64,000 bases of DNA from Clostridia bacterium (GCA_045660065.1 JAZRDC010000026.1:5823-69822); one strand, 5' to 3'; shown: positions 16,450 through 60,793, counted from the first letter of the stretch. A program made the numbers and translations. The notes: generated by a model not told the origin, from the sequence alone.

Positions 16450-16463
16450 TTTTACCTCCGGTA

Positions 16464-16829: not shown

Positions 16830-16835
16830 TTAAAA

Positions 16836-17207: not shown

Positions 17208-17231
17208 TTATGTTCCTCCCTCCAAAAATTA

Positions 17232-17261
17232 GAACTTTCGTTCTGATTACATATTATGTAA
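17232..17261. promoter_or_regulatory. Two adjacent palindromes (GAAC-N4-GTTC and TTACATA-T-TATGTAA) in the divergent control region
   Basis: GAACTTTCGTTC is at 17232-17243 and the perfect 15-bp palindrome TTACATATTATGTAA is at 17247-17261. Both lie between the micro-ORF RBS and the YfcE-gene promoter. Confidence 0.3.
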
Positions 17262-23166: not shown

Positions 23167-23168
23167 AA

Positions 23169-23627: not shown

Positions 23628-23636
23628 TTGTTCACC

Positions 23637-24077
23637 TTATTCTAACACAACAGTTTCTTTATTTATGTCGCAATATGAAGAAATTAATGAAATAATTTCT
23701 TCTCTATTATCTTCGTTTGCAAGTTTTACTTTCACTTCTGTAACTTCGTTATTTTCCAAAGTAACTTCCACATTTTTTACAGATTTTCTGTTTGATTTTA
23801 ACATATTAATAATGTTTTGCCTTACAATTTCATTAGTTTGTTTTTGCACAGTTTCAGTTATTTTTGAATTTTCAAAAACAGGAACATTGTTATTAAAATC
23901 AAGCACACCGCTTGAAATATCAAACTCTCTCACCGAGCCTGCAAAAACAAGTACCAAAACAAGTCCGAATATATATTTACAATATTTTTCATACCCGCCG
24001 CCCGGTAACATTGTATATATAAGATTTACGGCTATCACTGTTGTTGCAATCAATATGATTATTTTGCTCATATTCAC
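23637..24077 (-). CDS. spoIIIAF: Stage III sporulation protein AF
   Basis: The 146-aa ORF has two N-terminal TM helices and a soluble C-terminal domain. Position in the operon fits. Confidence 0.7.
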   Translation of the reverse strand: MNMSKIIILIATTVIAVNLIYTMLPGGGYEKYCKYIFGLVLVLVFAGSVREFDISSGVLDFNNNVPVFENSKITETVQKQTNEIVRQNIINMLKSNRKSVKNVEVTLENNEVTEVKVKLANEDNREEIISLISSYCDINKETVVLE

Positions 24078-24078
24078 C

Positions 24079-25197: not shown

Positions 25198-25580
25198 AGG
25201 GGTACCTTTGTAATCAGATTTATAAGTTCTTTAAAAATTGGTACTGAGGCTGAAAGTATTATGAGTTTACCTGCGATATCAATTTTTAGCGCAACAGAAC
25301 TTTCTCCTGCATCTTTGCACACCGACGAGATAAACTCACACATATAAGACACACCGATTACCTTGAACATAATTTCAAGATAGATTGTTTTAATACCTGC
25401 ATCATTGCATATCCTGCGTATACCCTCAAAGACAGTTTCAACATTTTTGCATATGTAAAGCATAAAAATTCCGCCAAAAATCACTGCTACGCACACTGAA
25501 AATTCAGGGCGGTAATTTTTAAGTATTACAGAAAGTAATGTTGCAACAAGTGCAATCCCAAGAATTTGTACTATATCCAT
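25194..25580 (-). CDS. spoIIIAD: Stage III sporulation protein AD
   Basis: The 128-aa ORF has four TM segments and overlaps spoIIIAE by 4 nt. Confidence 0.75.
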   Translation of the reverse strand: MDIVQILGIALVATLLSVILKNYRPEFSVCVAVIFGGIFMLYICKNVETVFEGIRRICNDAGIKTIYLEIMFKVIGVSYMCEFISSVCKDAGESSVALKIDIAGKLIILSASVPIFKELINLITKVPL

Positions 25581-25582
25581 AT

Positions 25583-25777
25583 TTAAAATCCAAAAGTATT
25601 TTTAACCACATCAAAAAGATTTTTTATTTCGCTGACCATTGTAAGCAATGCCACTATCAATCCTGCCAGAGTTACAAGCATCGCTTGTTCGTCTCTTCCT
25701 GATTTTGACAGCAGTTGATTGAGCACAGCAACCAATATCCCCACCGCCGCTATTTTAAATATCAAATCAACATCCAT
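25583..25777 (-). CDS. spoIIIAC: Stage III sporulation protein AC
   Basis: The 64-aa two-TM protein MDVDLIFKIAAVGILVAVLNQLL… is typical of SpoIIIAC. Confidence 0.75.
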   Translation of the reverse strand: MDVDLIFKIAAVGILVAVLNQLLSKSGRDEQAMLVTLAGLIVALLTMVSEIKNLFDVVKNTFGF

Positions 25778-25793
25778 AAATTTCTCCTTTAGT

Positions 25794-26299
25794 TTAAATA
25801 AGTAAAACTGCTATGCCAACTCCTGCTACAATTCCTGTTTTCTTCAACATTACGCATTCTTTATTACAAAAATCATTTTGTTTATTTATAATAGCCGAAA
25901 GTTTATCAAGATAACCATTTAACATTTTTTCCTGGTTTTCACAATCTTTTTCTCCAAGTTGCAAAAACAAATCTCTTGTTATGTAATATGTTTCGGTATT
26001 TGTGTTTTTTAAAAGCATTGGTGTAAGTTTTTCTATTGCGTTTTTGGCGCTTACACCCTTTTTAGCCAGTTCTTCCCCCACCGCTTTCATAAATTCAGAC
26101 GCAATGCCTGAAAATGAGGCTGATTTTAGAATACATTCATCTAAAAATCCACAGGAATATACAATTTCACTTTTAAGATATTCTATTCCATTTAAAAGAC
26201 CTTTTGCGAACTCAAGTTTTTTAATGTTGGATTTATAAAAATCAATTCCAAGTACCCAGCAAGTGAAGATAATTATAAGTGCTCCTAAAATTTTCATAT
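25794..26299 (-). CDS. spoIIIAB: Stage III sporulation protein AB
   Basis: I chose the internal start MKILGALIIIF (~26299). The longer ORF-track start at 26363 runs into spoIIIAA. About 168 aa. Confidence 0.7.
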
Positions 26300-27187
26300 T
26301 TCCTCCAGTAGCCGATAATTGATTGTGCGCCCTGAATGATTTTTTGATATTATCAGAAAACAATCAAAAGGAGTTTTTGTTATACCGAAAATTCTCGCTT
26401 TATCAAAATAATCTTTTTCGGTTATACCATGAAATGTTGCAAAAATCTTAACACCCGAAACTGAAATATTATTTATAATTTCAAAATCTTCTTTTGACAA
26501 TATTTCATCTGTTGCTATAATTTCGGGATTCATTGTCTTTAGCATAATATTTATTCCTTCTTTTTTGTAAATATCACTTAATACATCAGTATTTAAACCT
26601 AAATCATATATTCTTGCTCCTTCGGAAAACGGTGATATTTCACTTCTTTCATCAATAACAGACACATTTTTCCCCATATCTGACGCATATTTTATCATAT
26701 TTCTCAAAAGTGTGGTTTTGCCATAGCCGGGCGGTGCGATAATTAATACATTTCTTTCGGCCAAATCAAATTTATTGAAAATATTATTGCCCCAACCGTC
26801 TATTTGTCTTGACAATCTGATATTAAAACTTGAAATATCATTAATATTTTCAACAATTCCGCATTTGGTAATACATCTTCCGCAAATTCCTACTCTCGTG
26901 CCGTCCGGAAGGGTTATAAATCCACTTTTGATATCCTGCTGCATTGCATATACTGAATTTTGAGTAAAATATTTAAACATCTCTTTCAAATCCTCTTTGT
27001 GCAATCTTACGCCTTCATTTGTATTTTTAATTAAATTTCCATTTTTATCAAGAAAACATTTACTATTTAAACTGCAAAAAGTGATGTTTTGTCCGCACCT
27101 TACTCTTATTTCTTCGATATCTGTGTTATTTTTTAAACCTTGTTTTACAGCATCTCTCACCCTTAAGGGAAAATAATTGTAAAGCAT
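26294..27187 (-). CDS. spoIIIAA: Stage III sporulation protein AA (secretion-type ATPase)
   Basis: It has a Walker A motif (IIAPPGYGKTTLLRNMI). The start MLYNYFPLRV at 27187 is preceded by a GAGGAGG RBS, and the longer ORF-track start is unlikely. Confidence 0.85.
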   Translation of the reverse strand: MLYNYFPLRVRDAVKQGLKNNTDIEEIRVRCGQNITFCSLNSKCFLDKNGNLIKNTNEGVRLHKEDLKEMFKYFTQNSVYAMQQDIKSGFITLPDGTRVGICGRCITKCGIVENINDISSFNIRLSRQIDGWGNNIFNKFDLAERNVLIIAPPGYGKTTLLRNMIKYASDMGKNVSVIDERSEISPFSEGARIYDLGLNTDVLSDIYKKEGINIMLKTMNPEIIATDEILSKEDFEIINNISVSGVKIFATFHGITEKDYFDKARIFGITKTPFDCFLIISKNHSGRTINYRLLEEI

Positions 27188-27214
27188 TTCAAATTTCCTC
27201 CTCATGCACATTTA

Positions 27215-27242
27215 ACTATATGCTGCTTGTACAATTTTAGAA
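27215..27242 (-). promoter_or_regulatory. Possible sigma-E-type sporulation promoter for spoIIIA (-35 TTCTAAA, -10 CATATAGT)
   Basis: The -10 CATATAGT (reverse complement of 27215-27222) resembles the σE -10 consensus CATACA-T. The -35-like TTCTAAA lies 13 nt upstream. It sits between the upstream terminator and the spoIIIAA RBS. Confidence 0.25.
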
Positions 27243-27270
27243 CAAAAAAATAACCGCCTGAAAAGCGGTT
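27243..27270 (-). terminator. Rho-independent terminator after the DUF4363-like gene
   Basis: The stem AACCGC / GCGGTT (27252-27257 / 27265-27270) has a 7-nt loop. On the minus strand it is followed by ATTTTTTTG (reverse complement of the A-run at 27243-27250). Confidence 0.5.
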
Positions 27271-27271
27271 A

Positions 27272-27652
27272 TCAAAATATATTTTCCAATGTGGGTTTTA
27301 CACCTTCAACTGAGTAATTCAAAAGATATCTGAATTTATTTAAACTGCTCATAACCACTGGATCCCCAACTTCTTCACCATAAGCCTTAATTTCCTGTAT
27401 GCACTGTGCCATTTCCAATATTTGATCGTGGTCTTCAAATGCCATAAGCCAATTTTTTACTTCTTCAAAATTATCGCTTAACTTCTTAGTTGTTTGCTTT
27501 AATTTTTCCTTGTCATAGGTTTCAGCGTATTTTTGTATTTCAAAAGTTATCTGATATATTTCTTCTGCCTTTTTTTCAAGAATAAACTGATAAAAAATCA
27601 CGCCAACCAAAACAAAACAAAAAAAGGAAATTGATATTATAAAACTTTTCAT
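27272..27652 (-). CDS. DUF4363-like small protein (N-terminal TM, helical domain), partner of the DUF421 protein
   Basis: The 126-aa ORF overlaps the upstream DUF421/YetF-like gene by 4 nt. I recall this pairing as recurrent, but cannot verify the family. Confidence 0.45.
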   Translation of the reverse strand: MKSFIISISFFCFVLVGVIFYQFILEKKAEEIYQITFEIQKYAETYDKEKLKQTTKKLSDNFEEVKNWLMAFEDHDQILEMAQCIQEIKAYGEEVGDPVVMSSLNKFRYLLNYSVEGVKPTLENIF

Positions 27653-28320
27653 TTCTCCTCCTTTTTTTGCAGGAAATATTCCTGTCCGTCCGAGGACATC
27701 AAAAATACATCCTTAAGTTTTGTTTTTTCTTTTTTTAGTATCTCTTCAACCCATTTATTGTTTTTCCCGATTTCTTGTAAATTTGTTGTTTCTACTATAC
27801 CATCTTTAATGATATTTTTGTGCATAGTTGCATCTTTTACTTTCATATTCAAATCTTTTGGACTCAACGGTTTTAAATGGGCTTTGGGGATAATACTGAT
27901 TTCTCCGTTGGTTTCTAAAATAGCATATTCAATTTCACCAACTGATGTGTAACCGTTCATTCTTAATTCTTCGGACAAATCGTCAATATTAACTCTTAAT
28001 CTTTTTAATTCTTTAATATCAATTTTTCCTTTGTTTATAATAAGGCTTGCAGAGCCCGAGAGAATTTTTCTTACTTTTTCACTTTTCTGAGATAAAAATG
28101 ACAGCACAATTTCTGCCGTCATAAGGGTGATTATTGGTATTATTCCGCTAAGTAAAGGCTTTCCGGTCGACTCCATCGGAACAGTTGCAATATCTGAAAC
28201 CATTATCGCAAGAATCAGTTCGCTTGGTTGCAACTGTCCTATTTGTCTTTTCCCCATACATCTGAAAATTATTATAATTGAAAAATATAATATCAGCGTT
28301 CTAATAAGTGAAATCAGCAA
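27649..28320 (-). CDS. DUF421 (YetF/YdfS-like) membrane protein
   Basis: The N-terminal membrane domain has the conserved block MGKRQIGQLQPSELILAIMVSDIA. A C-terminal YetF-type soluble domain follows. Confidence 0.75.
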   Translation of the reverse strand: MLISLIRTLILYFSIIIIFRCMGKRQIGQLQPSELILAIMVSDIATVPMESTGKPLLSGIIPIITLMTAEIVLSFLSQKSEKVRKILSGSASLIINKGKIDIKELKRLRVNIDDLSEELRMNGYTSVGEIEYAILETNGEISIIPKAHLKPLSPKDLNMKVKDATMHKNIIKDGIVETTNLQEIGKNNKWVEEILKKEKTKLKDVFLMSSDGQEYFLQKKEEK

Positions 28321-28362
28321 TCAAATACACTCCTTAAGAGGTATTATCTGCTATTTTAATTA

Positions 28363-29058
28363 TTAATATTCCTTATTTTCAAACTCTTTGCGCATTTTGC
28401 CAAGGGCCTTTTTCTCAATCCTTGAAACATAAGACCTTGATATTCCCAGGAGTTTTGCTATTTCCCTTTGAGTTTTTTCCGCATATCCTTCAAGTCCGTA
28501 TCTGTACCTTATGACTGTTTTTTCTCTGTTTGTTAAAACATCCTCCAATATGCCATACATTTTTTTAATCTGCGCAGTAAGTTCCACCCGTTCGATAACA
28601 TCTTCATCTTCCTGAGATACTATATCTAAAAAACTGATTTCATTGCCTTCTTTATCAATACCAATGGGTTCTTCAAGTGAAACTTCATTGGCAAATTTTT
28701 TACCGCCTCGTATAATCATCAGTATTTCATTTTCGATACATCTGGAAGCGTATGTCGCAAGTCTGATACCTTTTTCTGCATCAAAAGTATTTATTGCTTT
28801 AATCAGTCCGATTGTGCCTATAGAAATTAAATCATCTGCTTCTACATTGGCAGAGTTATACTTTTTGGCAATGTATGCAACAAGACGCAGATTTTTTTCA
28901 ATCAAAGTATTTCTTGCAGACATATCGCCTGATTTCATTTTTTCAAGCTGTTCTTTTTCCTCCTTTGCGCTAAGTGGTTTCGGAAAAGAATTAGATGTGG
29001 AAACATACGACAGTAAAAAAAGCACCTGACTCATTACAGAGCCGAACAAAACAAACAT
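28363..29058 (-). CDS. sigK: RNA polymerase sporulation sigma factor sigma-K (pro-σK, uninterrupted)
   Basis: The hydrophobic pro-sequence ends …YVSTSNSFPKPLS, as B. subtilis pro-σK does with YVKNNAFPQPLS. The region-2 (DLISIGTIGLIKAI) and region-4 (REIAKLLGISRSYVSRIEKKAL) blocks match SigK, and no intervening element is present. Confidence 0.85.
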   Translation of the reverse strand: MFVLFGSVMSQVLFLLSYVSTSNSFPKPLSAKEEKEQLEKMKSGDMSARNTLIEKNLRLVAYIAKKYNSANVEADDLISIGTIGLIKAINTFDAEKGIRLATYASRCIENEILMIIRGGKKFANEVSLEEPIGIDKEGNEISFLDIVSQEDEDVIERVELTAQIKKMYGILEDVLTNREKTVIRYRYGLEGYAEKTQREIAKLLGISRSYVSRIEKKALGKMRKEFENKEY

Positions 29059-29076
29059 TATACTCCTCCTTTGTAG

Positions 29077-29084
29077 AGTATATG
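29077..29084 (-). promoter_or_regulatory. Sporulation-sigma type -10 element (CATATACT) upstream of sigK
   Basis: The minus-strand CATATACT lies about 20 nt upstream of the sigK ATG and matches the σE/σK -10 consensus CATA…TA. I could not assign a -35 confidently. Confidence 0.25.
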
Positions 29085-29112
29085 TTTTTTATATTTTATT
29101 TTGCAAGTCCAT

Positions 29113-29144
29113 AAAAAAAGACTTTCCTCCAAAAAGGAAAGTCT
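29113..29144 (-). terminator. Rho-independent terminator after yabR
   Basis: A 9-bp stem AGACTTTCC / GGAAAGTCT (29119-29127 / 29136-29144) with an 8-nt loop is followed on the minus strand by TTTTTTTAT. Confidence 0.5.
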
Positions 29145-29150
29145 AAATAA

Positions 29151-29576
29151 TTAATAGTTTTGTCTTCTTGAACCGCAACTTCCGCGTTTTGATTCAAAGT
29201 TACGTTTTAAAGTCTGTTGTCTTTCATCACTGTCTGATTTAAAACGGCTGATTTTATCTTCAAAAGAGAGATTTGCAGCAGAAGGTTTAGTAAACATTTC
29301 AACATCTGCAGGTCTTGATGCTTTTAAAGCAGCTTCTTCCTCCTGAACTTTTTTAATAGATAAACTAACCTTTCCGCCCGGAGCAACAGAAACAACCTTA
29401 ACTTTAACGCTATCATTAACTTTAAGATGATCGTTGATATCCTTAACATAATCCATCGCTACTTCAGAAATATGTACAAGCCCTGTGATTTTTGTGCCAT
29501 CAATCTGCACAAAAGCACCAAAATTAGTTATACCTGTAATCTTTCCGTTTAACACACTGCCTACTTCAAGCTGCAT
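29151..29576 (-). CDS. S1 RNA-binding domain protein (YabR-like)
   Basis: The N-terminal S1 domain reads VGSVLNGKITGITNFGAFVQIDGTKITGLVHISEVAMDYVKDINDHLKVNDSVKVKVVSV. Its position after divIC matches B. subtilis yabR. Confidence 0.75.
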   Translation of the reverse strand: MQLEVGSVLNGKITGITNFGAFVQIDGTKITGLVHISEVAMDYVKDINDHLKVNDSVKVKVVSVAPGGKVSLSIKKVQEEEAALKASRPADVEMFTKPSAANLSFEDKISRFKSDSDERQQTLKRNFESKRGSCGSRRQNY

Positions 29577-29614
29577 AAAACTTAAATCCTCCTTGGTTTA
29601 CCTTACACTTACAA

Positions 29615-29905
29615 TTATCTTGATGAGTCAACAAATAAGCGTTCATTCTCTTTAAGGAAACCTAACTTCTCACGCGCAATTTTTTCTACGCGTTTGATTT
29701 CATTTTCTGTTTTCATTTCAGTTTCAATTTCCTTTTTAAGTTCATTCTGAACTTTGATTTCACTTCTTATTGTATCTGCTTTATCTGATAATTGACTAAT
29801 AGTAACCTGCTGTTGTATTAAAACAACACAAAAATAAACTGCCAAAACCATAGGAAGAACTAAAAACATTAAACTCTTTTTTCCGGTTTTCGTTTTCTTC
29901 GACAC
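29615..29905 (-). CDS. divIC: Septum formation initiator DivIC/FtsB family
   Basis: The 96-aa ORF has a basic N-terminus, one TM helix and a coiled coil (QLSDKADTIRSEIKVQNELKKEIE). It sits between yabQ and yabR and overlaps yabQ by 37 nt. Confidence 0.7.
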   Translation of the reverse strand: MSKKTKTGKKSLMFLVLPMVLAVYFCVVLIQQQVTISQLSDKADTIRSEIKVQNELKKEIETEMKTENEIKRVEKIAREKLGFLKENERLFVDSSR

Positions 29906-30414
29906 GGCTTACGCTCCTTGCAAAATTTATTGCCTAAATACAAAATCCCTACATTACACTTTATTTTAAAACAAAATTGCTTAAATGTCAATGCTATTTT
30001 CGCTTTTTTTGATAAAAGTTTTTGTTTTATTTTTAAAAATGGCAAAATTATAATTCTGCAAAGAGAAATTACAGGATACAACATTATTTTCAAAATATAT
30101 TTTATTAATTTGTTTGTCCATATAAAAATTCTTACAACATATGCACTTAACAACCATCTGTAAATTACAAATGCTACTATTGATGAAACCATCATATATC
30201 CTCTTATTTCCGCGCCGTTTAACTTTAAAATAAAACTAAATATAACAACTGATATTATTATATAATAAAAAATATCTTGCAAAACTAACTGCCTTGCTTT
30301 TACTATTTTCCCGAACCGTGCCGCCTTAAACAAATCAAAAATAATTCCGCAGATTATACCCAGCACAAAACAACTAACCACTACATTTATTTCCAGGGTA
30401 ACAGAATTGCTCAT
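29869..30414 (-). CDS. yabQ: Spore cortex biosynthesis membrane protein YabQ
   Basis: The 181-aa multi-TM protein lies immediately downstream of yabP, the conserved yabP-yabQ-divIC order. Confidence 0.6.
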   Translation of the reverse strand: MSNSVTLEINVVVSCFVLGIICGIIFDLFKAARFGKIVKARQLVLQDIFYYIIISVVIFSFILKLNGAEIRGYMMVSSIVAFVIYRWLLSAYVVRIFIWTNKLIKYILKIMLYPVISLCRIIILPFLKIKQKLLSKKAKIALTFKQFCFKIKCNVGILYLGNKFCKERKPCRRKRKPEKRV

Positions 30415-30428
30415 ATTTCATTTCCCCG

Positions 30429-30716
30429 CTACTTGAAAAGTTTTGCAAAAAAACCGCCCGAACTTTCCCCTTGTCCGTCATTATAAACAACAGAAAATAC
30501 ATAGCCTTCGATACTCATTTCGCCCTCATCCACGCTCAAAGTGTTAATATGCAGATTTTCGCCTTCCAATGTAATCATTCCATCCGTTGTTTCGGCTATG
30601 ATTTTTTCCTCGTCGAAAGATACAACATTTTCTACTCCTGAAATGCTGATTTTCTCTCTGTTTTCAATGATAATATTATGCAGCACACTATCCTTTAAAA
30701 ATTTCTTTTCTTCCAT
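30429..30716 (-). CDS. yabP: Sporulation protein YabP
   Basis: The 95-aa ORF has the YabP signature ISISGVENVVSFDEEKIIAETTDGMITLEGENLHI. Confidence 0.8.
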   Translation of the reverse strand: MEEKKFLKDSVLHNIIIENREKISISGVENVVSFDEEKIIAETTDGMITLEGENLHINTLSVDEGEMSIEGYVFSVVYNDGQGESSGGFFAKLFK

Positions 30717-30774
30717 AAAAAAACTCCTTTGCCTTTTTTATAAATTGTATTTGGCAAAAGAGTTATTTATTACA

Positions 30775-31020
30775 TTAATCAAATTGTCTATACATAAGTG
30801 GTGCATCATCTTTGGTTACATGTTTATCATCAACTTTCAGGATTTCTGCCTTTACCACCTTATCACCCAAAGATATTGACAATACATCACCGACTTTTAC
30901 TTCAGCAGACGCTTTGACTACTTTATCGTTAATCATTATTCTTCCTTTATCACAGGCCTCATTAGCAACTGTGCGTCTTTTGATAAGTCTTGATACTTTT
31001 AAGAATTTATCTACTCGCAT
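30775..31020 (-). CDS. RNA-binding S4 domain protein (YabO / Hsp15-like)
   Basis: The S4 domain reads MRVDKFLKVSRLIKRRTVANEACDKGRIMINDKVVKASAEVKVGD. I chose the internal start at 31020, since the longer ORF-track start adds a non-conserved extension. Confidence 0.75.
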   Translation of the reverse strand: MRVDKFLKVSRLIKRRTVANEACDKGRIMINDKVVKASAEVKVGDVLSISLGDKVVKAEILKVDDKHVTKDDAPLMYRQFD

Positions 31021-31086
31021 TTTCTCCTCCGATTTATACAAAAAAGACAGTCCGATCAAAAAATCGAACTGTCCTTCAGGGCTAAA

Positions 31087-31362
31087 TTATTTTATAGCAT
31101 CTTTGAAAGCTTTACCAGCTTTGAATGCTGGAGCTTTAGAAGCTGGGATAGTGATTTCCTGTTTTGTACGAGGATTTCTACCCTTTCTTGCAGCTCTTGT
31201 CTTAACTTCAAATGTACCAAAGCCAACTAACTGTACTTTGTCATCTTTTGCTAATGCACCTTCAACGCTTTCAATAAAAGCAGCTAATGCTTTTTCAGCA
31301 TCTTTCTTTGAAAGTTCAGCTTTTTCTGCGATAGCAGCGATAAGTTCTGTCTTATTCATCAT
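31087..31362 (-). CDS. hup: DNA-binding protein HU
   Basis: [32 protein letters not shown]…GFGTFEV…[33 protein letters not shown] is a textbook HU sequence. Confidence 0.9.
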
Positions 31363-31563
31363 AAAACACCTCCCATTTTTTTATAATACAAATTGGAATA
31401 TATAAAAGGCAAAAAGCCATTTTATCGAGTCCACATCAACTATTATAAACAATTTTCAAACAATATTCAAGTGTTTTTTTTAATTTTTTCCATATTTTTT
31501 GTTATTTTCTTGTTTTTGACACTTTAATTTGCTTTTTATTGTCATTATTTACCAATATATTAG

Positions 31564-33153
31564 CTATTTTAAAAACATTTTAAAGATTTTAGCTATTTTT
31601 TCACCGCATGGCATAGCCAAAACATCCTGTTTATTAACTGCTTTTAACACTAAAAGTAAAGCAAAATATACAATCGCTGACAATGCAATTGATGCAAGAA
31701 GCGAAACAGAATTTGACGATGTTATTCCAAGCACAAAATTATAACTTACATTTGCACATACACCCATTATTGCAACAGAAATTATTGTCTTAATTATAAA
31801 GCCAACACCATAGTTGGGGGCAAAATACTTATGTATTGCAATAAGATTTAATGTCGCAGTAGTAAGGTAACACAAAACTGTGCCGATAGGTGCACCGTTA
31901 ATGTTAATATTGATGTTACCCACCAGAACATAGTTGACAACTATTTTTACAAGTCCACCAATACACATATTAATTACAGGCACCCATACATTTCCCCTTG
32001 CCTGAATAATTGCATTTGCAACCATAACCACGCTTACAAATATAACGCCATAGGCTAAAATTTTAAGCAAAAGTTCTGCTCCTGTATCTGCAAAAGCAAG
32101 ATTTAAAATAGGACCTGACAGAACTGACATTCCAACTGCACAAGGAAGTGCAATCAAAAGTGTAATTCTGATGGCAGTTTCAACTGTTTTGGTTGCAACA
32201 GCGTAATCTTTTTTAACCAATGCTACTGAAATAGCAGGAACTATACTTACCGCCAAAGATGCGATAATTGTCGGTGGAAGATTGAACATTGTTACAGCGT
32301 AACCTGAATAATAACCATACATTGTTGTTCTTGCATCTTCATCAAATCCAAGATCTGCAAGTTGTCGCATTATCATAGTTAAGTCAATCACACTTGCAAG
32401 TGTGAATACTGATGCTCCCAGAGTAATCGGAACTGCAAGTTTTATTAAATTTACTGCTATTGTTTTTGATTTTGTAGTTTGTTTTTCAGGTTTGCAGAGT
32501 TTTTTTACTTCTGGTCTTAATTTATACCAATAAAGCATTAAAAACAGTGCAGCAATAAATGTACCTGTTGAAACACCCAGTATTGCTCCTGATGCGGCAT
32601 ATTCAATGCCATAACTCAAAAACAGATAAGAAAGAAGCAGTCCTACAAACATTTTTCCACTTGCTTCAATTACTTCAGATATTGCAGTAGGCATCATATT
32701 GCTCATACCCTGATAAAAGCCTCTGTAAGCACTCATCAAAGATACAAAGAACAAACTCGGCGCCATTGCCATCATTGCAATTCCCGCACTTGGTATTTTC
32801 AAAAATCCCGCAAAGGCATTTGCTCCAAACAAAAGGATACAAAATCCGAGGACACCTAAAATAAACAAAATAACTCTTGAAACTTTAAATATTTTTAGTG
32901 CTTCGTTATAATTTTCTTTTGCAATGCTTTCGCTGACCATTTTAGATATTGCAACAGGAAGCCCCGCTGTTGAAACAATAAACAAAACATTATAAATTGT
33001 ATACGATGAGTTGTAAATTCCGATACCATCAGGGCCTAAAATATAGCGCGTGAGCGGAATTTTATATATAGCACCTATAATTTTAACAACAATATGCGCA
33101 ATTGCTATAATGAGTGCTCCCTGTAAAAATCCTTGCTTTTTAACTTTTTCCAA
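31564..33153 (-). CDS. MOP-superfamily flippase of the SpoVB/YabM polysaccharide-biosynthesis type
   Basis: The 529-aa, ~14-TM ORF has the Polysacc_synt N-terminal pattern (GALIIAIAHIVVKIIGAIYKIPLTRYILGPDGIGIY). Its position near the yab cluster fits yabM/spoVB. Confidence 0.65.
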   Translation of the reverse strand: MEKVKKQGFLQGALIIAIAHIVVKIIGAIYKIPLTRYILGPDGIGIYNSSYTIYNVLFIVSTAGLPVAISKMVSESIAKENYNEALKIFKVSRVILFILGVLGFCILLFGANAFAGFLKIPSAGIAMMAMAPSLFFVSLMSAYRGFYQGMSNMMPTAISEVIEASGKMFVGLLLSYLFLSYGIEYAASGAILGVSTGTFIAALFLMLYWYKLRPEVKKLCKPEKQTTKSKTIAVNLIKLAVPITLGASVFTLASVIDLTMIMRQLADLGFDEDARTTMYGYYSGYAVTMFNLPPTIIASLAVSIVPAISVALVKKDYAVATKTVETAIRITLLIALPCAVGMSVLSGPILNLAFADTGAELLLKILAYGVIFVSVVMVANAIIQARGNVWVPVINMCIGGLVKIVVNYVLVGNINININGAPIGTVLCYLTTATLNLIAIHKYFAPNYGVGFIIKTIISVAIMGVCANVSYNFVLGITSSNSVSLLASIALSAIVYFALLLVLKAVNKQDVLAMPCGEKIAKIFKMFLK

Positions 33154-33232
33154 AGTCTCCGACCTCCAAATAATGTTATTATAAGTATACCAAATTTCTA
33201 CTTACAAATCAATAGTTTTATAAACTTAGTTC

Positions 33233-33261
33233 TTGCATTTATTCAGTATATTTGATATAAT
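33233..33261 (+). promoter_or_regulatory. Strong sigma-A promoter (TTGCAT-N17-TATAAT) for the 63-aa Cys-rich ORF
   Basis: The -35 TTGCAT is at 33233-33238, the spacer is 17 nt, and a consensus -10 TATAAT is at 33256-33261. The RBS GAGGTG at 33284-33289 lies 5 nt before the ATG at 33295. Confidence 0.45.
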
Positions 33262-33294
33262 AAGACGAATTCTAACAAATTATGAGGTGTTACG

Positions 33295-33486
33295 ATGGAA
33301 AATATCAATGTTTGCAACACATGTGTATATGCTACTGTTTTAGTTACTGATGAAATACTTTGCTCTAAATATGGAGTTTTAAATTGCAACGATGCCTGCA
33401 AGCACTTTAAAGAAGATCTTACTAAAAAGCAGGTCAGAAAAAAAAGAACAGTAAAATTTAACAGTTTAGAAAATAACGCTAACTGA
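33295..33486 (+). CDS. Small Cys-rich protein (CxxC…C…Cx3C) with a basic C-terminal tail; hypothetical
   Basis: The 63-aa sequence is MENINVCNTCVYATVLVTDEILCSKYGVLNCNDACKHF…KKQVRKKRTVKF. It has a consensus promoter and RBS, and its 3' end overlaps the gpr stop region by 8 nt (convergent). Confidence 0.45.
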   Translation: MENINVCNTCVYATVLVTDEILCSKYGVLNCNDACKHFKEDLTKKQVRKKRTVKFNSLENNAN

Positions 33487-34393
33487 TATAACTGTCAATT
33501 TCATCAATTTTTATATTGTGAAATGTTATATTTATCCCACTTGAAATAATACTTGCCATTTGTTTTGTAAGTCTATCTGTTTCTTTTGGTGTAACTGTAA
33601 ACAAGGTGTTTTCACCTTGTTTTTTTTCACTTATTTTTTCTAAAATTTCATTTTTATTAATTATCCCCAGAGAATCAACTGCATCATATGCAAGAGTGAG
33701 TGCATCGACTACCATTGGCACTCCAATTGAAATAACGGGAATTCCAAGTGATTTTTTTGTTATTTCTTTTCTGTGATTGCCTATGCCCGAACCCGGATTT
33801 ATGCCTGTGTCTGACATCTGGATTGTTGTAGCAACTCTTTCTGTTTTTCTTGATGCTAATGCGTCAACAGCAATTACTGCATCGGGGTGAACTTTTTCAC
33901 ATATTCCTTTTATAACATCTGCGGTTTCCACCCCGGTTATCCCCATAACTCCTGGAACTGCTGCATATATCAGTCCAAGTTCTCCAAGGCTTTTAGGCGC
34001 AAGTTCTGCCAAATGACCTGTTACTATCAGTTTATCTACTGTCCACGGGCCTAACGCATCTGAGGTTATTAATCTGTTTCCAAGTCCTGCAACCAAAATT
34101 TTTTTCTTTTCAAATCCCGGTAAAAGTTTTTTTAATTCACTTTTGATAAGTTCAATTGCCTCTTTGTGATAGACATATCCGTAATTCAAAAATTCGGGCA
34201 TTTCTATGGTGATGTAATTTCCTACGGGTTTTCCGATAGCACTGCTTCCCTTTTCGTTTATCACCTTAACTTCTGTAACAATTACATTTGTATATTCATA
34301 AGTTTTTGCTTCCACTCCGTCAATCTCGCTTGTGTTTCCTGCGTTTTCGTGATACATTTCTTTTGCTTCCAAAGCAAGGTCTGTTCTTAACAT
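33479..34393 (-). CDS. gpr: Germination protease GPR (SASP-degrading endopeptidase)
   Basis: MLRTDLALEA…ILVAGLGNRLITSDALGP…MGITGVETADVI… match the GPR family. The ORF is 304 aa. Confidence 0.85.
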   Translation of the reverse strand: MLRTDLALEAKEMYHENAGNTSEIDGVEAKTYEYTNVIVTEVKVINEKGSSAIGKPVGNYITIEMPEFLNYGYVYHKEAIELIKSELKKLLPGFEKKKILVAGLGNRLITSDALGPWTVDKLIVTGHLAELAPKSLGELGLIYAAVPGVMGITGVETADVIKGICEKVHPDAVIAVDALASRKTERVATTIQMSDTGINPGSGIGNHRKEITKKSLGIPVISIGVPMVVDALTLAYDAVDSLGIINKNEILEKISEKKQGENTLFTVTPKETDRLTKQMASIISSGINITFHNIKIDEIDSYIS

Positions 34394-41413: not shown

Positions 41414-41878
41414 TTAAAAATCGATAGTTAATCTTACCGATGAAATTTTTTCATTTGGTATTTTTAAAAGACTTTCGTCTTCAGTTTCAATTTCTGTTAT
41501 TTCATTATTTCTTGAAACAAGTTTGCCCTCAAGGCTTTTATTACCTTCAAATGAGCCATAAAAGTTAACACAAACTTTTTCACCTGCAAATCTATCAAAA
41601 TCTCTTTGCTTTTTCAGTTTGCGTTCTAAACCCGGCGAAGAAACTTCCAGGTAATATCCCTGATCAATTGGGTCTTCTTCGTCCAAAACATCGCTCAAAG
41701 GACGAGAAACTGCTTCACAATCATCAATAGAAACAGGTTCGTCTTCTCTGTCGATATAAACTCTTAAATAATAGTCAGAACCTTCTTTTTTAAACTCAAC
41801 ATCATAAATCATAATGCCAAGAGGCTCTGCAATTTTTTCCGCGAGTTTTTCAACGATTTCTTCTACTTTGTTTGCCAT
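41414..41878 (-). CDS. rimP: Ribosome maturation factor RimP
   Basis: The 154-aa ORF sits upstream of nusA. The RimP N-domain motif (LGIMIYDVEFKKEGSDYYLRVYIDREDEPVSIDDCEAVSR) is present. Confidence 0.85.
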   Translation of the reverse strand: MANKVEEIVEKLAEKIAEPLGIMIYDVEFKKEGSDYYLRVYIDREDEPVSIDDCEAVSRPLSDVLDEEDPIDQGYYLEVSSPGLERKLKKQRDFDRFAGEKVCVNFYGSFEGNKSLEGKLVSRNNEITEIETEDESLLKIPNEKISSVRLTIDF

Positions 41879-41912
41879 ACAACAACCTCCCTGAAATCCA
41901 CCGTATACAACG

Positions 41913-41940
41913 CAAAAGAGTGAGCTTTCTGCTCACTCCT
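41913..41940 (-). terminator. Rho-independent terminator ending the polC-ssb-like transcription unit
   Basis: An 8-bp GC-containing stem GGAGTGAGC…GCTCACTC (41918-41925 / 41931-41938) is followed on the minus strand by TTTTGCG. The U-tract is short. Confidence 0.4.
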
Positions 41941-42009
41941 TTGCCAAATTCTTATGTTATTGTTATTTTAACACATTTTTTTAAAAAAATCAAGTGTTTT
42001 AGCAAATTT

Positions 42010-42651
42010 TTAAATATTTTCATCAATTTCCTGATTTTTAACTACTTCAAGTTTTGTTACCGATACCTCATAGGCAGTTTTTTCGGCAAATTCATCTTCA
42101 GAAATTTTCTTTTTATAATCTCTGCTCTGTATTCTGCCCCAAAGTTTGATATTGGTGCCAACTTCAAGATTTCCTGTAAACTTGGCGTTTCTCCCCCAAG
42201 TAATGCAAGGAATGTAGTCAGATTTACCATACTGTCTGTTTACTGCGATTAAAACATCGCAAATTTCTCTGCCGAAAGGTGTGGTTCTGTATACGGGAGT
42301 TTTGCAGATATAACCGTTAAGAAAGATAGAATTCGGGGACTCATAATCTTCTGTCATATCATAAATCTTTTTAACAAACACAGTAAGTACCAGTTTATTC
42401 CCTTCATCGGAATAATTGTTATATGACCGAAATTGCCCCTCAACCTGAATAAGTCTTCCCGGATACAAATCAAAATCGCTTATCATTCTTTCGGAAATAG
42501 TCAGAATAACGCTGTCATAATTATCGCTAAGCCTTGGAACTTTCAAGCACAGTTTACAAAATCCTTCACCGTATATTTCATGGCTGTATTCAGGGACGCT
42601 GTCTACCATCCCTTCAAGCCTGGCCTCGTTATTTGTAAGCAGTTTTTCCAT
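42010..42651 (-). CDS. Tandem-OB-fold single-stranded-DNA-binding (SSB)-like protein lacking the acidic C-terminal tail
   Basis: Both halves of the 213-aa ORF follow the SSB OB-fold pattern. The second is clearest: NSIFLNGYICKTPVYRTTPFGREICDVLIAVNR…DYIPCITWGRNAKF…GTNIKLWGRIQSRDYKKK…AYEVSVTKLEV aligns with Firmicute SSB NRVVLVGRL…FTLAVNR…DFINCVTWRRQAE…GSLVAVEGRLQTRNYE. There is no DDDIPF-type tail. Only an 81-nt gap with no terminator separates it from polC. Confidence 0.55.
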   Translation of the reverse strand: MEKLLTNNEARLEGMVDSVPEYSHEIYGEGFCKLCLKVPRLSDNYDSVILTISERMISDFDLYPGRLIQVEGQFRSYNNYSDEGNKLVLTVFVKKIYDMTEDYESPNSIFLNGYICKTPVYRTTPFGREICDVLIAVNRQYGKSDYIPCITWGRNAKFTGNLEVGTNIKLWGRIQSRDYKKKISEDEFAEKTAYEVSVTKLEVVKNQEIDENI

Positions 42652-42732
42652 AAATACCCTCCTAAAGTATAAAAGCCTGATTTACACTTAAATCGTTATA
42701 TTTATATTTATGCAAAAACTACCAATGATATA

Positions 42733-45700
42733 CTAAAAAAATGTAATTTGCGCAGATTCCTGCATACCATCAAGGCAACCTTCCTGTCGCAAAACCTCGA
42801 TAGCTGTCTTATTTACTCCGCTTCTCATTCTTAAATCTTCAATTGAAGTAAACTCACCGTCTACCCTTGCTTCTGCAATTGACTTGGCAGCATTTTCACC
42901 AAGCCCCGGCATAGCAGAAAGGGGTGGCAAAATTCTGTTTTCTTCGTCAAGCAAGAATTTTACCGCATCTGATTTATACAAATCAATTTTAGTAAACTCA
43001 AAACCTCTTGAATACATTTCGTTGCAAACTTCCAGAATTGTAAGAACGGAAGAATCTTTAACGGAAAGTTTTTCATCGCTTGATTTTAATCTCTTGATTT
43101 CTTCACGGGTTCTTTCAATTCCTTTTGTCATAAGACTTGCATCAAAAAGGTCTGCACGAACTGTAAAATATGTCATATAAAATGCCAGTGGCTGATGAAC
43201 CTTAAACCAGGCAATTCTGAACGCCATCATTACATAAGCCGCAGCGTGGGCTTTAGGGAACATATACTTAATTTTAAGACAAGACTCAATATACCAGTCA
43301 GGAACATTACTTTCTTTCATTTTAGGAACATATTCCTGATGCTGGGTAAATTTACCTTTACGGGTGAACTCCATAATCTGGAATGCGTCTTCAGCGTCCA
43401 TACCCATATACATAAGATTTACCATAATATCGTCACGGGTACAGATTACTTCTTTTAATGTTGCGGTTCCTGCACGGACCAAATCCTGAGCATTGTTAAG
43501 CCATACGTCTGTTCCGTGTGAAAGACCTGAAATTCGTATTAACTCGCCGAAGGTTGTAGGAAGCGTATCAAGAAGCATCTGTTTTGTAAATCCTGTGCCG
43601 AATTCAGGAAGTCCGTTTGTGCCGATAACATCACAAAATTCTTCATCATATAATTCTTCTTTATATTTAAGTATTTTGTTGCTTGAGAAAAGGCTCATAA
43701 CATCCTGATCGTCAAGAGGAATTTTCTGAACATCTACCCCTGTAATATCACCAAGCATACGAAGTACCGTAGGATCGTCGTGTCCTAATATATCAAACTT
43801 CAAAAGGGTACCTTTCATTTTGCTGTAATCGAAGTGGGTGGTTATAATATCAACATCTGTTTTATCGGCAGGTCTGTGAATAGGACAAAAATCGTAAATA
43901 TCCATATCATCCGGCACAACAACCATACCGCCCGGGTGCTGACCTGTAGTTTTTCTTACACCTGCGCAACCTTTGGTAAGTCTGTCTTTTTCAGCATTTG
44001 TTGCAATAATATTGCGTTCTGCCAGATAGTTCATAACATAACCGTATGCAGTTTTATCTGCAAGAGTTGAAATTGTTCCTGCTTTGAACACATGGTCGCT
44101 TCCGAAAAAGTTTTCAAGGAACTTATGGGCTTTTGCCTGATATTCACCTGAAAAGTTAAGGTCTATATCAGGGTCTTTTTCGCCGTGAAAGCCTAAGAAT
44201 GTTTCAAACGGGATATCAAATCCGTCTTTATTCATTTTTGTTCCGCACTCAGGACAATCTTTATCAGGCATATCAACGCCACAGGCGTATTTACCGTCCT
44301 GAATAAACTCGTTATGTTTACAGTTTGGACAAACATAGTGCGGGCAAAGTGAATTAACCTCTGTAATTTTCATTAAAAATGCGATAAATGATGACCCAAC
44401 TGAACCTCGGGAACCAACTAAGTAGCCATCTTCTAATGACTTCCACACAAGTTTCTGGGCAATAACATACATAACAGAAAAGCCGTTATTAATAATGGAG
44501 TTTAATTCTTTATCCATTCTGTCCAAAACGAACTGCGGGATATTTTCACCGTAAATTTCGTGTGCAGTTGCATAGGAAATATTTCTAACATCGTCTTCCG
44601 CGCCGTCGATTTTCGGTGCATAAGTTTTCTTTGGAATTGGTTGCAGGTCAGGTTCAATCATATCTGCAATAAGGTTGGTATTCTTTACAACTGCGTTATA
44701 TGCAGTTTCTTCGTCCAAATAATCAAACTCTTTAAGCATATCTGTTGTGTTTCTGAAATACAAAGGAGCCTGATTATCTGCGTCTTTATACTTTTGACCT
44801 GCCTGAATTATTGCTCTGAAAACTTTATCATCAGGATCAAGAAAATGCGCATCGCAAGTTGCAACATATGGCTTATCGAGTTCTTTTGCAAGGTCAATTA
44901 TAATTTTATTAAACTCCTGAAGTTGCCCTACATTACTAACAGTTCCGTTATCTAACATAAATCTGTTATTTCCGATTGGCTGGACTTCTAAGTAATCATA
45001 AAATTCTGCAATTTTCAATAAGTCATCGTGGCTTTTACCATCAACTACCGCTGTAAAGAGTTCACCCGCTTCACAGGCAGAACCTACTATAAGCCCTTCA
45101 CGGAACTCTGATAAAATTCTTCTTGGCACACGGGGTCGTTTGTAAAAATAGTTAAGGTGTGATTCTGAAATTATTTTATATAAATTTTTCATACCTTCCT
45201 GATTTTTAACAAGAAGAATAACGTGATAAGTATTTGCTTTTGTATAATCTGCACGGGCAAACTGAGAGTTAATCTGTCCAATGTTGGTAACACCCATTTT
45301 CTGCAAAATATCTCTTGTTTTAAAGAAAATATATCCGCAGGTTCTTGCATCATCAAATGCTCTGTGGTGGCTACCCATATTTATATTAAAACTTTTTGCT
45401 ATTGTATCTAACTTGAACTTTTTGAGGTCAGGAAGCAAGTTTTTGCAAAGTTCTAATGTATCAATTGATGTGTTTGAAAATGAAAGTCCTAATTTTTCAC
45501 AATAATACTTAATAAACCCACAATCAAATTCCGCGTTGTGAGCAATAACAGGATAATCACCCGCAAATTTTAAAAATTCGGGCATAACAGTTTCCAAAGT
45601 CGGCATACCGCTTAACATATCATTTGTAATACCTGTCAAGTCGGTTGTAAAACTGCTGATTGAAAAGCCCGGGTCAATCAACTGACTGTATGTATCTACA

Positions 45701-46647
45701 ATCTGCCCTTTTTCGAATTTTACTGCACCGATTTCTATAATTGAACAAGTAAGAGGGCTAAGACCTGTTGTTTCAATATCAAGTGCTATAAATGTATCGT
45801 CAAAAGTACAATCTTTATATCCTTTTACAATCTTTGTTTCATCATCAATCAAATAACATTCTGTACCATAAATAATTTTAATTCCGTTCTTTTTACCTGC
45901 GTCTAATGCATCAGGATATGCCTGAACAACACCGTGGTCTGTAATTGCAATGGCTTTGTGTCCCCATTGGGCAGCACGCTTAACTGCGGCTTCAACATCT
46001 ACAACACTATCCATAGCACTCATTTTTGTGTGGAGATGCAATTCAACACGCTTCTCTTCTGCGTCATCAACCATTTTCGGTTCTTCAACAAGAGTTACAG
46101 CGTCTGCAAAAATGCCAACTTCATTATCATACTTGTCGTATGATGCTTCTCCCATAACACGCAGATATTTCCCCTCTTTGATTGAGGCGCAAATTTTTTC
46201 TGCCACAGGTTTTGTCATTATTAGTTTACAGGTTATAGAAGAAGTTTTATCTGTTACACCAAATTTAAAAAGAATTCTACCTCTTTTTGTTTCTCTTTCG
46301 TCAGTTGAAATAACCTGACCTTCAATTGTAACTTTACCATAATACTGATCGATATTACTGATTTTTTCAATTTCCACATCTTCAGTATTCAAAGGTTTGC
46401 CCAAAAGCACAGGATTTACTTTTTTCTTTTGTTCAACCACATTAAATGTAGCATCTACTTTATCTATTGGATAGATGCCCATAATTGCGTCTGTGAGTTC
46501 TGCTTTTTCCTGATCTGAAAGCGGATTTGGCACAGAAAAAGTAACCTGCATCGAATTCGTTGCAGGTTTAAGTTTTATATTTTCGACCTTTGTGGTAAGC
46601 ATTACAGGAGTAACTACCACATCATTAAATAAATCTAAAAAATTCAT
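42733..46647 (-). CDS. polC: DNA polymerase III PolC-type (Gram-positive replicative polymerase)
   Basis: The 1304-aa ORF has an inserted DEDD exonuclease (FIALDIETTGLSP…HNAEFDCGF…HRAFDDA), a PHP domain and the polymerase core. The zinc-finger insertion CPHYVCPNC…CPECG is present. Confidence 0.9.
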   Translation of the reverse strand: MNFLDLFNDVVVTPVMLTTKVENIKLKPATNSMQVTFSVPNPLSDQEKAELTDAIMGIYPIDKVDATFNVVEQKKKVNPVLLGKPLNTEDVEIEKISNIDQYYGKVTIEGQVISTDERETKRGRILFKFGVTDKTSSITCKLIMTKPVAEKICASIKEGKYLRVMGEASYDKYDNEVGIFADAVTLVEEPKMVDDAEEKRVELHLHTKMSAMDSVVDVEAAVKRAAQWGHKAIAITDHGVVQAYPDALDAGKKNGIKIIYGTECYLIDDETKIVKGYKDCTFDDTFIALDIETTGLSPLTCSIIEIGAVKFEKGQIVDTYSQLIDPGFSISSFTTDLTGITNDMLSGMPTLETVMPEFLKFAGDYPVIAHNAEFDCGFIKYYCEKLGLSFSNTSIDTLELCKNLLPDLKKFKLDTIAKSFNINMGSHHRAFDDARTCGYIFFKTRDILQKMGVTNIGQINSQFARADYTKANTYHVILLVKNQEGMKNLYKIISESHLNYFYKRPRVPRRILSEFREGLIVGSACEAGELFTAVVDGKSHDDLLKIAEFYDYLEVQPIGNNRFMLDNGTVSNVGQLQEFNKIIIDLAKELDKPYVATCDAHFLDPDDKVFRAIIQAGQKYKDADNQAPLYFRNTTDMLKEFDYLDEETAYNAVVKNTNLIADMIEPDLQPIPKKTYAPKIDGAEDDVRNISYATAHEIYGENIPQFVLDRMDKELNSIINNGFSVMYVIAQKLVWKSLEDGYLVGSRGSVGSSFIAFLMKITEVNSLCPHYVCPNCKHNEFIQDGKYACGVDMPDKDCPECGTKMNKDGFDIPFETFLGFHGEKDPDIDLNFSGEYQAKAHKFLENFFGSDHVFKAGTISTLADKTAYGYVMNYLAERNIIATNAEKDRLTKGCAGVRKTTGQHPGGMVVVPDDMDIYDFCPIHRPADKTDVDIITTHFDYSKMKGTLLKFDILGHDDPTVLRMLGDITGVDVQKIPLDDQDVMSLFSSNKILKYKEELYDEEFCDVIGTNGLPEFGTGFTKQMLLDTLPTTFGELIRISGLSHGTDVWLNNAQDLVRAGTATLKEVICTRDDIMVNLMYMGMDAEDAFQIMEFTRKGKFTQHQEYVPKMKESNVPDWYIESCLKIKYMFPKAHAAAYVMMAFRIAWFKVHQPLAFYMTYFTVRADLFDASLMTKGIERTREEIKRLKSSDEKLSVKDSSVLTILEVCNEMYSRGFEFTKIDLYKSDAVKFLLDEENRILPPLSAMPGLGENAAKSIAEARVDGEFTSIEDLRMRSGVNKTAIEVLRQEGCLDGMQESAQITFF

Positions 46648-60741: not shown

Positions 60742-60793
60742 CCCTTTAAGTATTTCCTGTTATAAATATATGAAAAGGGACGGTTAATATTCT

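Follow-up and report, generated by a model that had tools for sequence, protein, structure and literature searches.

A tail-less member of the PRK05813 family is encoded between polC and rimP

We analyzed 64,000 nucleotides (nt) of DNA from a Clostridia bacterium (GCA_045660065.1 JAZRDC010000026.1:5823-69822), hereafter the window, and focused on a gene encoding a protein with two OB folds in tandem that is related to SSB, the protein that binds DNA in single-stranded form. An earlier prediction for this locus, hereafter the original prediction, had described the gene as co-operonic with polC and its product as tail-less, and had suggested a role for the product as an accessory of the replicative polymerase. 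The open reading frame (ORF) occupies 42010..42651 on the minus strand, begins with ATG and ends as ...QEIDENI-TAA, which agrees with the 213-aa product and stop that had been predicted, and a putative ribosome-binding site, AGGAGG (42658..42663 (-)), is positioned 6 nt 5' of the ATG. The upstream neighbor is polC (42733..46647 (-)), which encodes a PolC-type DNA polymerase III (NF001688, 1731 bits). Exactly 81 nt (42652-42732) separate the polC stop codon from the gene on the same strand, and this gap contains no terminator detectable by consensus scan, with an 84-nt fold reaching -8.5 kcal/mol (z +0.5); the spacing and the lack of an intervening terminator are therefore as originally described. 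Downstream lies rimP (41414..41878 (-)), the first gene of a rimP-nusA-rnpM(ylxR)-ylxQ-infB array in which rbfA follows infB.

Comparison with NCBIfam placed the protein in NF004476 (PRK05813.1, 'single-stranded DNA-binding protein') at 315.9 bits against a cut-off of 171, in an alignment that sets residues 1-209 on profile positions 2-212 of 219, and its length of 213 aa falls within the ~205-220 aa two-OB class of the family. At the 90% identity level, >8000 clusters matched, and at the 50% level 1025 clusters did so with an expectation value (E) < 1e-30; the family is present in at least 595 species genomes, and all 80 of the family loci that we retrieved belong to Clostridia or unclassified Bacillota. 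Conservation is strong, with 78 invariant columns in 36 sequences down to 56% identity. No identical copy of the protein turned up when a contig index was queried with its exact sequence. We conclude that the ORF is a real gene encoding a two-domain, tail-less protein of a family that binds single-stranded DNA (ssDNA).

The absence of an SSB-type acidic tail, which had been predicted, was confirmed. Only 10 residues, which are disordered, lead from the last strand to the C-terminus, and they form the short tip VKNQEIDENI (42013..42042 (-)), within which the predicted local distance difference test (pLDDT) score is <50 at residues 207-213. This tip is acidic and ends in Ile, with neither a linker nor a P-F tip. 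Among the 241 family members whose C-terminal ends were compared, none carries a D-D-D-[IL]-P-F-like tip; many end in a short acidic stretch with I or V as the last residue, and many others end directly after the barrel. In addition, the match to the TIGR00621 ssb model is below cut-off (30 bits vs 53.95), as is the match to the TIGR04418 PriB model (20.4 bits vs 72), and the gene has no rpsF-ssb-rpsR context, its neighbors being polC and rimP. The low TIGR00621 score, the missing tail and the missing rpsF-ssb-rpsR context together support the earlier view that the protein is a paralog of SSB rather than the housekeeping SSB itself. Searches of the 64-kb window with E. coli SSB, B. subtilis SsbA and each half of the protein as queries revealed no other SSB-like ORF.

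The novelty that the original prediction implied was not upheld. PRK05813/NF004476 is a curated family, one of its members has been crystallized in part (PDB 4GS3) and characterized in vitro in a biochemical paper, and the protein type is thus already known, which gives the locus little weight as a discovery.

Some family members show other architectures. A 469-aa protein (P0121) comprises two complete tandem-OB units and thus four OB folds per chain. A fusion of the tandem-OB unit to a DnaD-like PF07261 domain is seen in P0137, P0271 and P0272, and these three metagenomic singleton clusters are the only ones to carry it. We considered this fusion as a link to the primosome (P0137) and rejected it as weak or artefactual, given the three singleton clusters vs >100 near-identical unfused clusters and the absence of a DnaD gene from the normal context of the lineage. 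Fusions to an EF-Tu-like GTPase domain (P0178 and P0183) look like gene-calling artefacts and were likewise set aside.

The two OB folds derive from an old duplication and differ in their aromatic residues

A confident AlphaFold2 model built with 36 homologs (pLDDT 85.5, predicted template-modeling score 0.79) contains a pair of five-stranded barrels, both capped by a helix. The N-terminal OB fold spans residues 9-98 (42358..42627 (-)) and is a diverged domain homologous to PDB 4GS3, as indicated by phmmer (4gs3_A, E 3.5e-19) and by Foldseek (42% identity, TMt 0.89). The C-terminal OB fold spans residues 108-203 (42043..42330 (-)) and is a canonical SSB-type domain, which can be aligned to B. 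subtilis SsbA (6bhw). The Pfam SSB model PF00436 matches the protein at residues 107-202 only (64.6 bits vs a cut-off of 26, E 9.4e-18) and gives no match in the N-terminal OB fold. When the whole chain was compared by Foldseek, the top matches were the two-OB SSBs of Thermus and Deinococcus (2fxq, 2cwa and 1se8; TM 0.71-0.75, E ~1e-12) in alignments spanning ~210-220 columns, and single-domain matches included SsbA, SsbB and 4GS3. The model and these matches confirm the two predicted OB folds, which have SSB-dimer-like packing within one chain.

The original prediction had also described the protein as an internal duplication. BLASTP of the N-terminal half against the C-terminal half was not significant (18% identity, E 4.1). 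We did not take this null result as counting against duplication because a profile comparison settled the question: hhalign of the N-terminal halves against the C-terminal halves of the 241 family members returned 96.8% probability (E 2.7e-10). By this profile evidence, the duplication is real but old, and BLASTP is blind to it.

The two halves differ at the positions that matter for stacking on DNA. In E. coli SSB, W40, W54, F60 and W88 are ssDNA-stacking residues. In the C-terminal OB fold of the protein, Y141, Y146, W152 and Y179 align with these four residues and also with the aromatics of B. subtilis SsbA, and they are near-invariant in the family. The equivalent positions of the N-terminal OB fold are S42, S47, S53 and N79. 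By these alignments, the canonical aromatic ssDNA-stacking residues are retained in the C-terminal OB fold and lost from the N-terminal one, so that the earlier claim of an SSB aromatic pattern in both halves stands for the C-terminal half and fails for the N-terminal one.

Adjacency to polC is limited to one small clade

We retrieved 80 related loci and used tblastn to map polC, rimP, nusA, infB and ispG within them. Upstream of the tandem-OB gene, polC was present in three of these loci, namely L001 (87% identity), L003 (69%) and L004 (67%); L003 and L004 keep the adjacency though their downstream genes differ. In L002 (74% identity) and the other 76 loci, the gene has no polC upstream and resides in other contexts. 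Synteny with polC is thus not conserved across Clostridia, its three occurrences being in close relatives, and the adjacency is limited to one small clade. The conserved gene order in Firmicutes is polC-rimP-nusA-infB, and because of the comparison with this order the tandem-OB gene looks inserted at the polC-rimP junction. Its product is probably not a polymerase accessory. Regarding the polymerase itself, the PolC of the window is 1304 aa long and its NF001688 alignment starts at profile position 209 of 1445, such that most of the N-terminal domain of a typical ~1440-aa PolC is missing.

To find recurrent partners, we clustered all neighboring ORFs in the 80 loci. The commonest neighbor is a PdaB-like polysaccharide deacetylase, encoded directly upstream on the same strand in 37 loci, for which the best NCBIfam match is TIGR02764 PdaB at 226 bits, below the cut-off of 237. 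In 18 loci, a protein of ~155-215 aa is encoded between this deacetylase and the tandem-OB gene (L028 4976-5635; also L081 5379-5846), and this intervening protein has no Pfam or NCBIfam match. The same order of deacetylase, unknown gene and OB gene is found in L081-83, which represent an abundant ruminococcal-type lineage. Loci of Clostridium sensu stricto have dapH, dapB, dapA and asd downstream. In eight loci from several genera (L019, L032, L038, L040, L052, L056, L060 and L072), priA-def-fmt follows downstream, usually separated from the tandem-OB gene by a gene of 139 aa (L019 7748-8167; L032, L040, L060, L072 and others). Upstream, mutS occurs in eight loci, and a likely ligA, identified by its N-terminal sequence only, lies downstream in L008. 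In about five loci, the tandem-OB gene is directly followed by a small ORF that resembles an alpha/beta-type small acid-soluble spore protein by its sequence alone, with no NCBIfam match. As for the 139-aa protein, it is conserved and carries a Walker-A-like GKKGVGKT motif but has no Pfam or NCBIfam match.

A sigma-E-type promoter-like element lies in the gap between polC and the tandem-OB gene

The 81-nt gap contains a sigma-E-type promoter-like element, AGTATATC-N13-GCATAAAT (ATA-N16-CATAAATA), at 42706..42734 (-), which overlaps the polC stop codon and stands at a distance from the tandem-OB gene that suits a promoter. We scored the window with a two-block sigma-E weight matrix derived from 47 mapped Clostridioides difficile promoters (PMC3789822), and the element at 42734..42706 ranked 3 of 127,948 window positions. 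Sites ranked 4 and 7 lie 5' of two other small-gene clusters in the window. The classical sigma-E targets spoIIIAA and yabP served as a positive control, with the site upstream of yabP ranking 19 and that upstream of spoIIIAA ranking 23. A scan of the coding strand of the gap revealed no sigma-70-type site. Conservation of the sigma-E-type element extends from the window to L001-L004, L002 with its different upstream gene among them.

The signal extends to the family as a whole. When the top sigma-E score was taken from the DNA 5' of the tandem-OB gene, the median was 5.07 vs 3.61 in controls, which comprised 404 upstream regions from the same loci (Mann-Whitney p 2e-6), and a score >=7 was found upstream of the gene in 17.5% of cases vs 4.5% of controls. 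A search of 79 loci with the strict regular expression ATA-N15-17-CATA was uninformative (16 upstream matches vs 13 +/- 3.6 in shuffles) and was replaced by the weight matrix from mapped promoters together with real control regions.

Regulation has been measured for a relative in C. difficile. CD3235 belongs to the sigma-E (mother-cell) regulon, with a sigE-mutant/wild-type ratio of 0.03, or 33-fold (Saujet et al., 2013; PMC3789822); in a spoIIID mutant, its de-repression reaches 3.6-fold, and a sigma-E promoter of CD3235 was mapped by its transcription start site (PMC3789822). The organism of the window is itself a spore former, as indicated by the presence of sigK, the spoIIIA operon, gpr and yabP. 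The suggestion of the original prediction that the gene is possibly sporulation specific therefore gains support from the listing of CD3235 in the sigma-E regulon and from the high-scoring, conserved promoter-like element. Judged from this element, the tandem-OB gene seems to be served by a separate sigma-E-type promoter. The PdaB-like deacetylase, the commonest neighbor (37 of 80 loci), adds to the case for sigma-E, since in L081-83 its gene has the top sigma-E-type site of the locus. Taken together, the sigma-E-type site of the window gene, the published sigma-E dependence of CD3235 and the recurrent PdaB-like neighbor indicate a link to sporulation for this very large, strongly conserved family. 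The connection between PRK05813 and the sigma-E regulon, which we assembled from two publications (PMC2887958 and PMC3789822), was previously unremarked.

In L007-L072, a (G)TTCTAA(A) motif is found 14-16 nt upstream of a -10-like box, ~30-60 nt 5' of the tandem-OB gene. The motif recurs in many otherwise unrelated lineages and is the same -35-like element as that of spoIIIAA in the window, where the -35 element of the sigma-E-type site is GTTCTAAA. We take (G)TTCTAA(A) as a probable, lineage-dependent form of the sigma-E -35 box.

The protein resembles EndoTT and other accessory SSB-derived proteins

The best-characterized family member is Tte0829 of Thermoanaerobacter tengcongensis, a 216-aa PRK05813 protein with two OB folds named 'EndoTT' (Zhang et al., 2010; PMC2887958). 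EndoTT and each of its halves bind ssDNA in vitro, and at high protein:DNA ratios its C-terminal half cleaves ssDNA, with G170, R172 and G177 required for cleavage and D171 and R178 aiding binding (PMC2887958). The structure of the N-domain of Tte0829 was solved under the name 'TtePriB' (PDB 4GS3; Liebschner et al., 2012, as described in PMC12614216 and PMC4129139). The window protein shares with EndoTT/TtePriB the curated family, the length (213 vs 216 aa), the two OB folds and the lack of a tail; the WGR(I/V)QSR-Y-KK motif is kept in its C-domain, and its N-domain is the one that is 42% identical to 4GS3. Residues 170-190 of EndoTT (GDRIRLWGRVQSREYQKKLGD) align with residues 165-185 of the 213-aa protein (GTNIKLWGRIQSRDYKKKISE), in which G170, G177 and R178 are kept as G165, G172 and R173 of the C-terminal OB fold. 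The set of cleavage residues is incomplete, however, in that N167 replaces R172; Asn occupies this position in 136 of 241 family members, and Arg in only 19. EndoTT coexists with two canonical single-OB SSBs in T. tengcongensis, Tte2053 and Tte2780 (PMC2887958). Besides having Asn for R172, the window protein differs from EndoTT in that its gene lies between polC and rimP, its host is a mesophilic, low-GC, gut-type spore former instead of a thermophile, and it is known here from sequence alone.

CD3235 of C. difficile, annotated 'ssb', has been named as a PRK05813 homolog of EndoTT (PMC2887958) and is distinct from CD3662, the canonical SSB of that organism (PMC5400081). In both organisms for which this has been looked at, T. 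tengcongensis and C. difficile, the family member thus occurs beside canonical SSBs, and this literature gives a housekeeping role no support. Compared by its published description, CD3235 is of the same family as the window protein and is a second SSB beside CD3662, and its sigma-E-type promoter, like the element in the window, has ATA, a 16-18 bp spacer and an A/C-ATA-type -10 box. Unlike the measured regulation of CD3235, that of the window gene is predicted from its upstream DNA.

Three more distant systems offer partial parallels. The SSBs of Deinococcus and Thermus (DrSSB 1SE8/3UDG, TaqSSB 2FXQ and TthSSB 2CWA) likewise carry a pair of OB folds on each chain, arranged like those of an SSB dimer (TM 0.71-0.75), but they are the sole housekeeping SSBs of their hosts and keep an acidic C-terminal tail, whereas the window protein is tail-less, shares 18-20% sequence identity with them and has no aromatic DNA-stacking residues in its N-terminal OB fold. 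SsbB of B. subtilis and Staphylococcus (3VDY and 5YYU), to which the C-domain aligns with E ~5e-6, is similarly a second SSB that lacks the partner-recruiting tip and is under a developmental programme, which is competence for SsbB and would be sporulation for the window gene; unlike the window protein, SsbB has a single OB fold, forms a tetramer and belongs to a different family and regulon. Proteobacterial PriB is also tail-less, SSB-derived and equipped with two OB folds per functional unit, but it is a homodimer of single-OB chains, and its gene lies between rpsF and rpsR.

An accessory ssDNA binder expressed from its own promoter is the favored explanation

We favor, with moderate confidence, the explanation that the gene encodes an accessory ssDNA binder of the PRK05813 family that does not recruit SSB partners and is driven by sigma-E, and that its neighborhood with polC is incidental. 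In this model, the protein would bind ssDNA mainly via its C-terminal OB fold, with the N-terminal OB fold contributing to assembly or to contacts with partners, a role reported for EndoTT-N. Because the SSB C-terminal tip is missing, the usual SSB partner proteins would not be recruited, which would make the protein an accessory paralog that coats or occupies ssDNA and not a housekeeping SSB. Transcription would occur mainly from the sigma-E-type promoter in the 81-nt gap, and expression would take place in the mother cell early in sporulation, by analogy with C. difficile CD3235. Read-through from polC could occur but would be incidental, with the adjacency representing a lineage-specific accident of gene order and not a functional operon. 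Candidate actions on ssDNA include its protection, a block to replication or repair, an aid to recombination and cleavage.

Several points weigh against this explanation. The sigma-E matrix is AT-rich and of low information, and the loci of the family-wide test are related and hence non-independent. In many relatives, a clear sigma-A-like promoter replaces or accompanies the sigma-E-type site: the sequence in Clostridium sensu stricto is TTGAAA-17-TATAAT, L081-83 are similar, and in L081-83 the top sigma-E-type site of the locus lies upstream of the deacetylase instead of the tandem-OB gene. The lack of a terminator in the gap makes co-transcription with polC possible. Furthermore, growing cultures of T. 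tengcongensis contained EndoTT protein (PMC2887958) and proteomes of C. acetobutylicum included CA_C2382 (PMC4886415), and because of these detections expression is not strictly limited to sporulation across the family.

A broader reading, which we offer only tentatively and regard as rather unlikely in its full form, is that PRK05813 represents a clostridial sporulation function. Here, a sigma-E-dependent ssDNA binder specific to the mother cell, which recruits no partners and is linked in the genome to a PdaB-like cortex deacetylase, would act on mother-cell ssDNA as spores form by occupying or processing it, for instance in the shutdown of replication or repair or in helping programmed DNA rearrangements. 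The three names in use for the family ('SSB', 'PriB' and 'EndoTT') mutually disagree. If the sporulation reading is true, the labels 'PriB' and 'endonuclease' miss the real biological role of the family.

The alternatives to an accessory, sigma-E-driven ssDNA binder assign the protein other activities. A PriB-like primosomal role, in which the two-OB chain mimics the PriB homodimer and aids PriA-directed restart in Clostridia, is improbable. It is the idea behind the name 'TtePriB' that the crystallographers chose. It would account for a tail-less protein with two OB folds per functional unit, and it draws on the priA-def-fmt genes just downstream in eight of 80 loci from several genera, on the other DNA-metabolism neighbors (mutS in eight loci, the likely ligA in L008 and polC in the window) and on the existence of the DnaD-like PF07261 fusion (P0137). 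Yet adjacency to priA is seen in only 10% of loci, the fusion occurs in three singleton clusters vs >100 unfused ones and is absent from the lineage's normal context, the TIGR04418 score of 20.4 bits falls far from its cut-off of 72, and the rpsF-rpsR context is lacking. In Firmicutes, replication restart is carried out by DnaD, DnaB and DnaI, and PriA is recruited through the SSB tail, which the tandem-OB protein does not have. No family member has a demonstrated interaction with PriA, and the sigma-E dependence seen in C. difficile is ill-suited to a housekeeping restart factor.

We give still less credence to an EndoTT-type ssDNA endonuclease, in which the C-terminal OB fold would cut ssDNA and ss/ds junctions in repair or recombination. 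Membership in the same family, the alignment of segment 170-190 with 165-185 and the retention of equivalents of the nuclease-essential G170 and G177 (G165 and G172) and of the DNA-binding R178 (R173) are consistent with such an activity, but the cleavage-essential R172 is replaced by N167, with N in 136 and R in 19 of 241 members, and the EndoTT authors confine their nuclease prediction to homologs with G-R-G (PMC2887958). Moreover, cleavage by EndoTT took a large excess of protein, and the OB fold appears to have no evident acidic or metal-binding catalytic residues. Least supported of all, and very unlikely, is a dedicated ssDNA-binding accessory of PolC co-expressed from one operon as originally predicted, since the same-strand position 81 nt beyond polC, without an intervening terminator, and the persistence of this adjacency in L001, L003 and L004 despite differing downstream genes in L003 and L004, are set against its absence from 77 of 80 loci (L002 at 74% identity included), the independent, conserved promoter-like element in the gap, the apparent insertion of the gene into the polC-rimP junction and the lack of any family member linked to PolC. 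The formulation 'co-operonic with polC, hence polymerase accessory' thus reflects a gene-order accident of a small clade and should stay out of annotation.

The hairpin downstream of the gene may belong to the rimP operon

The original prediction had placed a hairpin terminator after the gene. A 14-bp hairpin (GCAAAGGAGUGAGC/GCUCACUCUUUUGC) followed by GUUGU is present at 41912..41944 (-), with a folding energy of -24.1 kcal/mol (z -5.7). In a consensus terminator scan this hairpin went unnoticed, as its U-tract forms part of the extended stem; folding recovered it. The hairpin is thus real, but its assignment to the tandem-OB gene holds only in part. A sigma-A-like promoter with TG, TTGATT-17-TAAAAT, lies at 41965..41993 (-) between the stop codon of the tandem-OB gene and the hairpin, and from its position it is presumed to be the promoter of the rimP operon. 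The end of the hairpin is 33 nt from the rimP ATG. In L001 (6660-6745), the promoter is kept as TTGATT-17-TATAAT together with the hairpin, in which one A-U pair has changed to G-C in a compensatory manner. Because the hairpin sits 3' of the sigma-A-like promoter and 33 nt before rimP, and because both are kept in L001, it probably serves as a leader attenuator of rimP-nusA-infB in addition to, and perhaps more than, any function as terminator of the tandem-OB gene. In B. subtilis, a NusA-dependent autoregulatory terminator is located upstream of this operon, and the rimP-nusA-infB leader is possibly autoregulated by NusA as well. A search of the 64-kb window, hairpin included, found no Rfam family at gathering score (no tRNA, rRNA or riboswitch).

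Other sporulation genes and sigma-E-type sites in the window

A dense sporulation neighborhood occupies 22657-34393 (-). Family matches identified spoIIIAA (26294-27211 (-)), an apparently uninterrupted sigK (28363-29058 (-)), yabP (30429-30716 (-)) and gpr (33479-34393 (-)). The rest of the spoIIIA operon (~22657-25777 (-)), as well as yabQ, divIC and a SpoVB-like gene within 22657-34393 (-), were labeled by position or sequence only. The high-scoring sigma-E-type sites of spoIIIAA (27216-27243 (-)) and yabP (30745-30773 (-)) lie directly upstream of these genes. Another sigma-E-type site (60766-60793 (-)) lies directly upstream of a pair of genes encoding proteins of 103 aa and 276 aa that have no NCBIfam match; from the HExxH motif in the 276-aa product, this pair may be SpoIVFA/SpoIVFB-like. 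A further sigma-E-type site, at 17206-17235 (-), is directly upstream of three small ORFs (16192-17060).

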